A stretch of 64,000 nucleotides of DNA from the NCBI RefSeq assembly GCF_055900595.2, contig NZ_CM148325.1, one strand, 5' to 3'. Within the stretch, counting starts at the first letter, position 1, and each line of letters starts with the position of its first letter. The translations under genes and the position numbers were made by a program. Positions 3,446 through 51,835 of the stretch are shown in pieces. The notes beneath the pieces were generated by a model that was not told where the DNA came from, did not search any database, and worked only from the letters and a program-made list of their open reading frames with translations.

Positions 3446-3799
3446 AAATCATACTGCCTGTGGATGTGGTGTTGTAACGTTAAATTTTTGTGCCAATCCC
3501 TGGGGATGATACAGCGGTATATTTAAACAATTTTAGCGGGAAATACTCCCAACCAGGCGCGGCGAAGAATAGTTTTTCGATTTACCGCGTGAATGCAGTC
3601 AGTATGACAGCACCTGAAGCGCAATTTAAACGCTTATAACGTTTTAAAGCAAGAAGGGATCTAAAAACCAGAGGTATATAGCGATAAGAAATCACCAACC
3701 AGTATAAAACACTATTTCCGTGAAAAAGACATGGCTAATCATGCGAACAAAAAATCACCAACCGTTGTAAAATCTAACGCCCGTATTTTGACTGCAAAG

Positions 3800-11749: not shown

Positions 11750-11850
11750 CTTGTTGTCGGATGCGGCGCGAGCGTCTTATCCGACCTACGCGAGCTGCTC
11801 ATTTTGTAGGCCTGATAAGACGCGGCAAGCGTCGCATCAGGCATGATGCA
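11750..11850. repeat. REP (repetitive extragenic palindromic) elements between araJ and mak
   Basis: Motifs gtcggatgcggcg...cttatccgacctac and gtaggcctgataagacgcg...gcatcaggc. Confidence 0.7.
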
Positions 11851-13824: not shown

Positions 13825-13900
13825 CCTTTAATGCCGGATGCGACGCCTGCGGCGTCTTATCCGGCGTACGAATCCACACCAGGCATATAATCATTCGCTA
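13825..13900. repeat. REP element downstream of rdgC
   Basis: tgccggatgcgacgcctgcggcgtcttatccggcgtacg palindromic unit. Confidence 0.6.
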
Positions 13901-25434: not shown

Positions 25435-25535
25435 TTGTAAGATTGCCTGATGCGCTTTGCTTATCAGGCCTACAAGATAATTGCAATATACTGATTTTGT
25501 AGGCAGGATAAGGCGTTCGCGCCGCATCCGGCAAA
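25435..25535. repeat. REP elements downstream of ddlA
   Basis: gcctgatgcgctttgcttatcaggcctac ... gtaggcaggataaggcgttcgcgccgcatccggc. Confidence 0.6.
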
Positions 25536-48632: not shown

Positions 48633-49466
48633 ATGGAACTCATTGAAAAACATGCCAGCTTTGGCGGCTGGCAAAATGTGTATCGGCATTATTCCCAATT
48701 ACTGAAATGTGAAATGAATGTCGGCGTCTATCTCCCACTAAAAGCCGGGAATGAAAAATTGCCGGTACTGTACTGGCTTTCGGGCCTGACCTGTAACGAG
48801 CAGAATTTCATTACTAAATCGGGGATGCAACGTTACGCGGCTGAGCACAACATTATTGTTGTTGCGCCAGACACCAGTCCGCGAGGCAGTCATGTCGCAG
48901 ATGCCGACCGTTATGATCTCGGGCAAGGTGCCGGGTTTTACCTGAACGCAACGCAAGCGCCGTGGAATGAACATTACAAAATGTATGATTATATCCACAA
49001 CGAGCTGCCGGATTTAGTGATGCAACATTTTCCGGCAACGGAAAGAAAGTCAATCGCGGGTCATTCAATGGGCGGCCTGGGCGCGCTGGTGCTGGCGTTA
49101 CGTAACCCAGATGAATATGTCAGCGTCTCGGCATTTTCGCCCATTGTCTCCCCATCGCAAGTACCGTGGGGACAGCAAGCCTTTGCCGCGTATCTTGGTG
49201 AAAATAAAGAAACCTGGATGGATTACGATCCGGTGAGCCTTATTTCACAAGGTCAACGCGTTGCGGAAATCATGGTTGATCAAGGATTGAGTGATGATTT
49301 TTACGCAGAACAGCTGCGGACTCCAAATCTTGAAAAGATCTGCCAGGAGATGAATATCAAAACGTTAATCCGTTATCACGAGGGTTATGATCACAGCTAT
49401 TATTTTGTCTCCAGTTTTATTGGCGAGCATATTGCCTACCACGCCAATAAACTGAATATGCGTTGA
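48633..49466 (+). CDS. frmB: S-formylglutathione hydrolase FrmB
   Basis: ORF track, 277 aa, MELIEKHASFGGWQNVYRH; GHSMGG esterase motif. Confidence 0.95.
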   Translation: MELIEKHASFGGWQNVYRHYSQLLKCEMNVGVYLPLKAGNEKLPVLYWLSGLTCNEQNFITKSGMQRYAAEHNIIVVAPDTSPRGSHVADADRYDLGQGAGFYLNATQAPWNEHYKMYDYIHNELPDLVMQHFPATERKSIAGHSMGGLGALVLALRNPDEYVSVSAFSPIVSPSQVPWGQQAFAAYLGENKETWMDYDPVSLISQGQRVAEIMVDQGLSDDFYAEQLRTPNLEKICQEMNIKTLIRYHEGYDHSYYFVSSFIGEHIAYHANKLNMR

Positions 49467-49790
49467 GCATCCGCGCACGCCAGCCGGATGCGGCGTGAAC
49501 GCCTTATCCGCCTACATTTCGCCCATAAACCGTAGGCATGATAAGACGCGCATAGCGTCGCATCAGGCATCTGCGCACAGCTGCCGGATGCGGCGTGAAC
49601 GCCTTATCCGCCTACATTTCGCCCATAAACCGTAGGCATGATAAGACGCGCATAGCGTCGCATCAGGCATCTGCGCACAACTGCCGGATGCGGCGTGAAC
49701 GCCTTATCCGGCCTACATTTCGCCCATGAGCCGTAGGCATGATAAGACGCGTCAGCGTCGCATCAGGCATCTGTGCACGGCTTATCGATG
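49467..49790. repeat. BIME-type array: about three tandem copies of a ~100-bp unit, each with paired REP palindromes
   Basis: Unit ctgccggatgcggcgtgaacgccttatccgcctac...gtaggcatgataagacgcg...gcatcaggcatctgcgcaca repeated with a few substitutions. Confidence 0.8.
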
Positions 49791-49791
49791 A

Positions 49792-50331
49792 TTACCACAT
49801 CAAATCATCAGGCACTTTAAAGTCGGCATACGGATCGTCTTCATCCTGCTCTTCGGCGCTGAGCGCGCTGTGCAACACAATACTGCTGGCATCACGCTGA
49901 GCAATTTTATCGGCAACGCTGGCGGGAATAATGGCGTATTCACCTTCGCTATTGTTATCGACCAACAAGCGGGCAATCGCCAGACGACCATTAATCAACT
50001 GCGCTTGCGTGAGCTTATCGACAAAGATTTTCTTAATCAGATTACCGTCAATGAAGTTAAAACCAATATCGCCATTAGCAATGGTGATCCGGTTCATTTC
50101 AATGAGCTGCTTCACCTGGGCTTTATATTCTTTCGCCAACGCCGCTTGTTTTTGCTGCTCGCTAAGCTGTTTATCACGCTCAAGCTGTGCCTTTTTATTT
50201 TCTTCTACCGCCGCCCGAGCTTCACGCGCCTGAACGCGCGATTTTTTCGCCGTTCTCTCGACCTTCGCCGCTTTTTTGCTGGTGACTAATCCTGCTTTGA
50301 GCAACTGCTCTTGTAAGGTAAGTTTTGCCAT
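49792..50331 (-). CDS. yaiL: YaiL (DUF2058 family)
   Basis: ORF track 49792..50343; start placed at MAKLTLQEQLLKAGL. Confidence 0.85.
   Translation of the reverse strand: MAKLTLQEQLLKAGLVTSKKAAKVERTAKKSRVQAREARAAVEENKKAQLERDKQLSEQQKQAALAKEYKAQVKQLIEMNRITIANGDIGFNFIDGNLIKKIFVDKLTQAQLINGRLAIARLLVDNNSEGEYAIIPASVADKIAQRDASSIVLHSALSAEEQDEDDPYADFKVPDDLMW

Positions 50332-51714: not shown

Positions 51715-51835
<121 letters not shown>

Follow-up and report, generated by a model that had tools for sequence, protein, structure and literature searches.

The interval between frmB and yaiL in the 64,000-nucleotide (64-kb) stretch of DNA analyzed here, hereinafter the window, almost certainly contains a BIME-2 element, in which six alternating Y- and Z2-type REPs (numbered PU1 to PU6) form three 100-bp units. 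Taking all the observations together, we consider this reading highly probable; the BIME-2 may serve as a bidirectional hairpin block in the 3'UTRs of both genes, and its third unit was probably born from an exchange or slippage event. Elements of this kind are already known, REPs and BIMEs having been recognized since the 1980s, and the K-12 reference genome also carries one at this position; the rare third unit is the sole peculiarity of the window.

Structure and classification of the array

Tandem Repeats Finder (TRF) delineates a single array at 49467-49782, with a period of 100, 3.2 copies, 93% matches, 0% indels and a score of 539, and an independent repeat search places 100-nt copies in register at 49467, 49567 and 49667. 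These results bear out the original prediction of three tandem units of about 100 bp, and the tandem periodicity that a self-alignment was proposed to reveal is present, at 100 nt. The predicted end of the feature, 49790, approximates the end of the intergenic region (49791), but the repeat proper stops at 49782 and closes with part of a fourth linker (14-16 nt). The array fills the gap between the two genes (49467-49791, 325 bp) and is wholly extragenic, lying between the stop codons at the 3' ends of frmB and yaiL (Table 1). The copies differ by few substitutions, as had been noted: the gapped identity is 96% for units 1 and 2, 92% for units 2 and 3, and 89% for units 1 and 3, and all 4 substitutions between units 1 and 2 fall within the first 16 nt.

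Each unit consists of a Y palindrome on the plus strand, a 16-nt linker, an inverted Z2 palindrome and a 14-nt linker. The Y palindrome (33-34 nt) reads GCCGGATGCGGCGTGAACGCCTTATCCG(G)CCTAC on the plus strand, and the inverted Z2 palindrome (36-37 nt) reads GCCTGATGCGACGCT(A)TG(C)GCGTCTTATCATGCCTAC on the minus strand. The units were typed by edit distance to the three reference REP sequences (Y, Z1 and Z2) quoted in PMC11208160. All six classify cleanly, at distances of 1-2 to the published Y or 2-3 to Z2 and of 7-9 to the other types, in the order Y(+), Z2(-), Y(+), Z2(-), Y(+), Z2(-), so that the proposed REP pairs are indeed the building blocks of the array. When the window was shuffled 100 times, 0 chance matches were expected for the 34-nt Y-REP consensus at no more than 3 mismatches; PU5 is an exact match to this query with a GTGAAC loop. 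The CTAC/GTAG foot is present in 6 of the 6 units, all of which end with CCTAC in the PU orientation, and the folds place an internal mismatch or bulge in the stem of every one of them.

Table 1. Coordinates of the array components, the flanking genes and the Rfam matches in the array (window positions)
Feature	Position	Strand	Remarks
frmB (fghA), S-formylglutathione hydrolase, 277 aa	48633..49466	+	stop codon 49464-49466; the array is its 3'UTR
16-nt flank right after the frmB stop, GCATCCGCGCACGCCA	49467..49482	+	resembles the internal 14-nt linker; start of unit 1 in TRF
PU1, Y-type REP, 33 nt	49483..49515	+	one G of the CCGGCC foot missing; edit distance 2 to Y, 8-9 to Z1/Z2
16-nt linker, CTAC/GTAG side, ATTTCGCCCATAAACC	49516..49531	+	
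PU2, Z2-type REP, inverted, 37 nt	49532..49568	-	edit distance 3 to Z2, 9 to Y/Z1
14-nt linker, side away from GTAG, ATCTGCGCACAGCT	49569..49582	+	like that of unit 3 except for one base
PU3, Y-type REP	49583..49615	+	same sequence as PU1
16-nt linker	49616..49631	+	same sequence as 49516-49531
PU4, Z2-type REP	49632..49668	-	same sequence as PU2
14-nt linker, ATCTGCGCACAACT	49669..49682	+	
PU5, Y-type REP, 34 nt	49683..49716	+	one base off the published Y consensus
16-nt linker, ATTTCGCCCATGAGCC	49717..49732	+	
PU6, Z2-type REP, 36 nt	49733..49768	-	23 nt past the yaiL stop
Partial fourth linker, ATCTGTGCACGGCT, then 9 nt to the yaiL stop codon	49769..49791	+	
yaiL, DUF2058 protein, 179 aa per RefSeq	49792..50331	-	stop codon 49792-49794
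Rfam RF02564 (naRNA4), 66.8 bits	49535..49613	-	PU3-linker-PU2 doublet, yaiL-sense strand
Rfam RF02564 (naRNA4), 75.8 bits	49635..49713	-	PU5-linker-PU4 doublet

BIME-2 elements are defined by y and z2 REPs in inverse orientation that form multiple tandem copies with short linkers, the copy number being variable between strains; BIME-1 elements consist of z1 and y REPs in a single copy, with a long L linker that frequently contains an IHF site (PMC3333891). Judged from its sequence, the array agrees with the BIME-2 definition in its REP types, their inverse orientation, the tandem copies and the short linkers. BIME-2 elements are subdivided by linker motifs (S and s/l/r); the linkers here are about as long as those of REP325 but differ from them in sequence. 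Identity with BIME-1 (RIP) elements was considered and rejected given that the partners of the Y units are Z2, with edit distances of 8-9 to Z1, and that the array contains no IHF consensus. The suggestion that the array could provide IHF sites does not suit this subtype, given that the target of IHF is the long L linker found in BIME-1 (PMC3333891), whereas the linkers here are only 14 and 16 nt in length, and the IHF consensus WATCAANNNNTTR has no match within the array. In the whole window, this consensus is matched 4 times versus 2.7 expected, i.e., at chance level, and the nearest match, at 49355, is inside frmB. A CRISPR-like array was rejected as well because the apparent "spacers" are 14-16 nt long and vary little from unit to unit, and because successive repeats point in opposite directions.

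Genomic setting and predicted RNA structure

The last 300 nt of frmB and of yaiL are 100% identical to RefSeq genomes in which the two genes are annotated as fghA and yaiL, in convergent orientation, and the K-12 neighborhood (mhpT-yaiL-frmB-frmA) is organized likewise, which confirms the convergent setting assumed in the original prediction. frmB is the last gene of the formaldehyde-detoxification operon frmRAB. The other strand of the array is the 3'UTR of yaiL, and PU6 is the first hairpin that a yaiL transcript would encounter. In the window lineage, both gene ends (49167-49466 and 49792-50091) are only ~96% identical to those of K-12 or O157, but 100% identical to those of a small group of strains (E200086, Z0117EC0005); these identities imply that the locus belongs to a comparatively divergent haplotype block. 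A mechanically predicted ORF at 49739-49900 (53 aa) was rejected as a gene because it begins inside a REP and overlaps yaiL in antisense. A full-text search for literature on the REP element of this particular locus found none; in the supplements of preprint 10.64898/2026.03.23.713779, yaiL appears in an expression table only.

In the RNA structure prediction that had been suggested as a check, each REP folds strongly on both strands. The energies of single REPs range from -14 to -21 kcal/mol irrespective of the strand, with PU1 at -14.5 kcal/mol on the plus strand and -15.3 kcal/mol on the minus strand, and PU5 being the strongest hairpin (-21.3 kcal/mol); alternatively, the adjacent REPs of a doublet can pair with each other in a single long hairpin (-39 to -46 kcal/mol). 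Compared with its shuffles, the array as a whole is much more structured (z = -8.2 on the plus strand and -8.9 on the minus strand). In its global minimum-free-energy fold, distant units pair to form one giant hairpin, which we regard as a thermodynamic idealization, since the local hairpins of individual REPs would already have formed in the course of transcription. A search for intrinsic terminators (a hairpin followed by a T-run) in 49467-49791 detected none on either strand, and each Y hairpin is followed by just ATTTC. Given that the gap contains neither a terminator nor an IHF site, the REP hairpins are the only structured elements between frmB and yaiL.

Copy number variation among E. 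coli genomes

A megablast search of 5,426 complete E. coli genomes detected the locus in essentially all of them. The number of units was read from the intergenic span of the joined flank matches and verified on fetched loci, one unit corresponding to 124 bp (O157:H7), two units to 223-225 bp (K-12, E200086 and Z0117EC0005) and three units to 325-326 bp. Two systematic samples were taken in even steps down the match ranking, the second one with a flank-only query and thus unbiased by the array. The first sample included 34 one-unit and 24 two-unit loci, with three-unit or interrupted loci not seen in it, and the second sample included 33 one-unit, 24 two-unit, 1 three-unit and 2 interrupted loci. 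With both samples pooled (67 one-unit, 48 two-unit, 1 three-unit and 2 interrupted loci), about 58% of the intact loci have one unit, about 41% have two and about 1% have three; more than three units were found in none of the sampled loci, and each of the 116 intact ones has one REP doublet or more. The copy number variation between strains that had been proposed for such arrays is thus real at this locus, where other E. coli carry one, two or three units, and the window allele has one unit more than ~98% of the sampled strains.

The locus behaves like a small VNTR that is, in addition, a recurrent landing site of IS621 (see below), and could be useful for strain typing and for checking assemblies. 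The natural one-, two- and three-unit alleles with identical flanks would also provide a ready series for testing the effect of the number of hairpins on termination and mRNA stability.

Origin of the third unit

The closest relatives, E200086 and Z0117EC0005, have flanks that are 100% identical to those of the window and two units, which we denote A and B. In the window, the order is A, then a hybrid in which a linker of 14-16 nt that resembles that of B, apart from one private base, is joined to the body of A, and then B. Such a composition points to a single event, either a misaligned exchange between A and B or slippage, and is as expected for a third unit that was created by unequal homologous exchange, or by slippage during replication, within an ancestral two-unit allele; the crossover would fall in the 5' part of the Y REP. 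Three-unit alleles of other strains are built differently. In EC42405, the middle unit resembles B as far as the Z2 loop and A from there on, 2020CK-00188 carries two identical B units, and the three units of 3CM are all mutually diverged. These differences show that the expansion occurred several times, with different exchange intervals, for which homology-driven unequal exchange is a better fit than cleavage at a fixed site.

An assembly artifact, i.e., an erroneous expansion of a two-unit repeat, would also generate an apparent third unit, and it is true that the exact allele of the window is absent from all 5,426 complete genomes, with 97.8% identity in the best match for the middle unit together with both junctions, and that the closest relatives have two units. 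Nevertheless, the middle unit copies neither of its neighbors, as a real exchange would leave it, the complete genomes EC42405, 2020CK-00188 and 3CM contain three-unit alleles from four other sequence types, and an array of 300 bp is shorter than most paired-end inserts and any long read. We consider such an artifact exceedingly unlikely.

The flank that follows the frmB stop codon is lineage-specific as well: the window lineage has GCATCCGCGCACGCCA (16 nt) there, whereas K-12, O157 and 3CM have TAATAG(T)GCACGACT (13-15 nt). In the window, this flank resembles the linkers inside the array, which would be consistent with a remodeling of the left edge by exchange.

Proposed role at the 3' ends of frmB and yaiL

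Because the two genes converge and the gap between them contains no other terminator, transcripts from both sides would be expected to enter the array, and its most likely role appears to be that of a bidirectional hairpin block common to the frmRAB and yaiL 3'UTRs. The REP hairpins would block 3'->5' exonucleases and so stabilize the upstream message, and would attenuate read-through, in part in a Rho-dependent manner; the array would thus insulate the frmB and yaiL transcription units from each other. From published work on the family, we lean slightly towards the view that such a terminator or stabilizer role indeed operates at this locus. The REP325 array has been described as a partly Rho-dependent terminator that also stabilizes the upstream mRNA, ~60% of REPs are located between convergent genes, convergent pairs with a REP are expressed above controls, and nearly 40% of the REPs between convergent genes overlap predicted bidirectional terminators (preprint 10.64898/2026.03.23.713779). 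In the same work, terminal REPs showed no genome-wide link to longer mRNA half-lives, their effects being context dependent (preprint 10.64898/2026.03.23.713779). This context dependence and the tolerance of all three copy numbers in nature suggest that any effect at the frmB-yaiL locus is probably modest.

We also infer by analogy that the array may be a preferred site of DNA gyrase binding and cleavage. The affinity of gyrase for BIME-2 is higher than that for BIME-1 (PMC1475751), and high-affinity binding and in vivo cleavage of BIME-2 are reported in the accounts that PMC3333891 and PMC1475751 give of the work of Espeli and Boccard 1997.

A different view is that the array has no host function but is a selfish or neutral REPIN cluster that was seeded by RAYT/TnpAREP, drifts in copy number through slippage and persists owing to the safe space between convergent genes. 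This is a genuine possibility that we nevertheless judge to be doubtful. The coexistence of one-, two- and three-unit alleles, the free divergence of units and linkers between lineages and the tolerance of IS621 insertions within the array in two strains are all compatible with neutrality, and TnpAREP cleaves and recombines BIMEs in vitro (PMC3333891), but neutrality does not readily account for the conservation of at least one doublet in every intact sampled locus and in E. albertii. The lack of an alternative terminator in the gap and the literature support for local effects of REPs in 3'UTRs (preprint 10.64898/2026.03.23.713779) also speak against it. Moreover, this possibility overlaps in part with the hairpin block favored here inasmuch as a selfish origin is compatible with subsequent co-option by the host. 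At the other extreme, the number of units (1, 2 or 3) might be a heritable and reversible dial on the expression of frmRAB, yaiL or both, which appears improbable. Tolerance of all three states argues against a strong dependence of function on copy number. Were the number of units such a dial, more hairpins would mean stronger insulation and stabilization, and the recurrent, independent expansions to three units would reflect selection in particular lineages rather than neutral slippage.

Two further readings involve specific RNA-level mechanisms. According to one, the first REP would stall terminating ribosomes near the frmB stop, leading to mRNA cleavage, trans-translation and reduced production of FrmB. 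The Y REP of the K-12 and O157 alleles begins 13-15 nt past the frmB stop, the K-12 distance (13 nt) being within the published 15-nt limit for stalling, but in the window the stop and the Y REP are separated by 16 nt (49467-49482), just beyond this limit; the first paired base of PU1 is another 2 nt in, and the distance on the yaiL side is 23 nt. The lineage-specific length of the flank thus shifts the first REP across the published limit, and stalling is an unlikely explanation for the window allele. The other reading, which we find very unlikely, is that the array is an naRNA4-like cluster of non-coding RNAs, in which Y-Z2 doublets would be cut from read-through yaiL transcripts to yield two-hairpin RNAs of ~77 nt that would bind HU, bridge DNA cruciforms and condense the chromosome. 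Two matches to RF02564 on the minus (yaiL-sense) strand exceed the gathering score of 59.5 (Table 1), and HU binding and DNA condensation in vitro were reported for the REP325 model (PMC4550694). The plus-strand scores within the array, 51.7 and 40.7, are under the threshold, and RF02564 is the only Rfam family with above-threshold matches in the 64-kb window, three in total, including one at 51740-51816 in addition to those in the array. This unrelated doublet scores 78.1 bits, and the RF02564 consensus, namely an inverted Y hairpin, a 13-nt linker and a Z2 hairpin in a model built on REP325 doublets, is effectively a profile of the BIME-2 doublet that any BIME-2 is expected to match. The Rfam matches accordingly restate the BIME-2 assignment and provide no independent evidence of an sRNA. 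Furthermore, deletion or overexpression of REP325 leaves the nucleoid volume unchanged, Hi-C shows no REP-REP contacts, and no stable complex of HU, cruciform and naRNA4 was found (preprint 10.64898/2026.03.23.713779, which shares an author with the original work), so that the chromosome condensation biology of naRNA4 and HU is disputed. Finally, ViennaRNA favors the single long hairpin per doublet over two separate hairpins (about -28 kcal/mol in total). Matches to mir-641, mir-58, MIR5274 and SNORD2, all far under the respective gathering scores, were dismissed as hairpin artifacts. Despite its similarity to naRNA4, the region is most probably neither a gene nor a CRISPR array nor an sRNA locus, and merits annotation as a repeat element.

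Relationship to other REP arrays

The closest counterpart of the array is the REP element of K-12 MG1655 (377312-377534, NC_000913.3), which is orthologous, lies between the same convergent genes and is built of the same unit (Y, 16 nt, Z2, 14 nt), with the last 300 nt of the flanking genes ~96% identical to those of the window. The K-12 element differs in having two units (223 bp) rather than three (325 bp), in the flank past the frmB stop, which is TAATAGCACGACT (13 nt) as opposed to GCATCCGCGCACGCCA (16 nt), and in the Z2 units, which read ATCAGGCCTAC in K-12 and ATCATGCCTAC in the window.

REP325 of K-12 (yjdM-yjdN) is the BIME-2 from which naRNA1-6 derive. It also has a 100-bp period and alternating Z2 and Y REPs that are nearly identical to those of the window, and it too exceeds the gathering threshold of RF02564. 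Its layout is Z2, 13 nt, Y, 17 nt, so that the linkers are 13-14 and 16-17 nt across both arrays. REP325, however, comprises 5.8 units (12 PUs) and is located between tandem genes of one operon, compared to 3.2 units between convergent genes in the window, and the whole units are only 78.6% identical, with the mismatches concentrated in the linkers.

BIME-1, RIP and RIB elements resemble the window array in consisting of two inverted REPs, one of them Y, at extragenic 3' ends, but contain Z1 in a single copy, with a long L linker and an IHF site (PMC3333891), in contrast to the tandem Z2-containing units with short linkers and no IHF consensus seen here. As in REPINs (RAYT/TnpAREP), the Y-Z2 doublets of the window can fold into one long hairpin, and its REPs have the two features on which TnpAREP depends, namely the GTAG foot and a mismatch in the stem (PMC3333891). 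Unlike fixed-site cleavage by TnpAREP, the copy number changes at this locus are explained by homologous exchange over intervals that differ from strain to strain.

For relatives beyond E. coli, one genome per species was scanned for the conserved C-terminus of YaiL. Among the at least 120 gammaproteobacterial yaiL loci listed, frmB is convergent to yaiL in only two, both from Escherichia. The GTDB representative labeled E. coli has a single Y + Z2 doublet at the frmB-yaiL junction, and E. albertii NBRC 107761 has a single doublet of Y and a Z1-like REP with a 10-nt linker at the same junction, ~105 bp downstream of yaiL. The single doublet therefore either predates the split of E. coli and E. 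albertii or recurs across it. As far as these genomes go, the tandem amplification is a feature seen within E. coli.

IS621 insertions and other REPs in the window

According to the published work on these families, the REP-associated tyrosine transposase uses REPs as substrates, and IS621 targets them. The frmB-yaiL BIME of E. coli STEC1590 and PEC199 is interrupted by IS621, an IS110-family element with a bridge-RNA recombinase, the ends of which are at 3469/3470 and 4749/4750 in STEC1590 and at about 2068 and 3347 in PEC199 (coordinates of the retrieved loci). In both genomes, the insertion point is between GTAG and GCCTGATAAG of a Z2 REP; the second Z2 was hit in STEC1590 and the first one in PEC199, implying two independent insertions. 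The natural target of IS621 is ATCAGGCCTAC (PMC11208160), from which the Z2 units of the window, ATCATGCCTAC, differ by one mismatch; the third Y of the window reads ATCCGGCCTAC.

Additional REPs in the window were collected with a fuzzy-regex scan, which yields a list of sites rather than a count, given that it misses the first two units of the array. A second Y + Z2 doublet, at 51737-51819, adjoins mhpT, its two REPs being separated by a linker of 13 nt on the side away from GTAG; it includes the plus-strand match at 51740-51816 that has the best naRNA4 score in the window. At 25445-25532, a Z1-type REP (25445-25473, plus strand) faces a Y-type REP (25499-25532, minus strand) across a 25-nt linker, a BIME-1-like arrangement in which an exact IHF consensus is absent. 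A Z2-type REP that stands alone and deviates from the consensus by 2 mismatches is located at 11806-11842, and a degenerate palindrome that resembles a REP but has 6 mismatches at 13833-13869.
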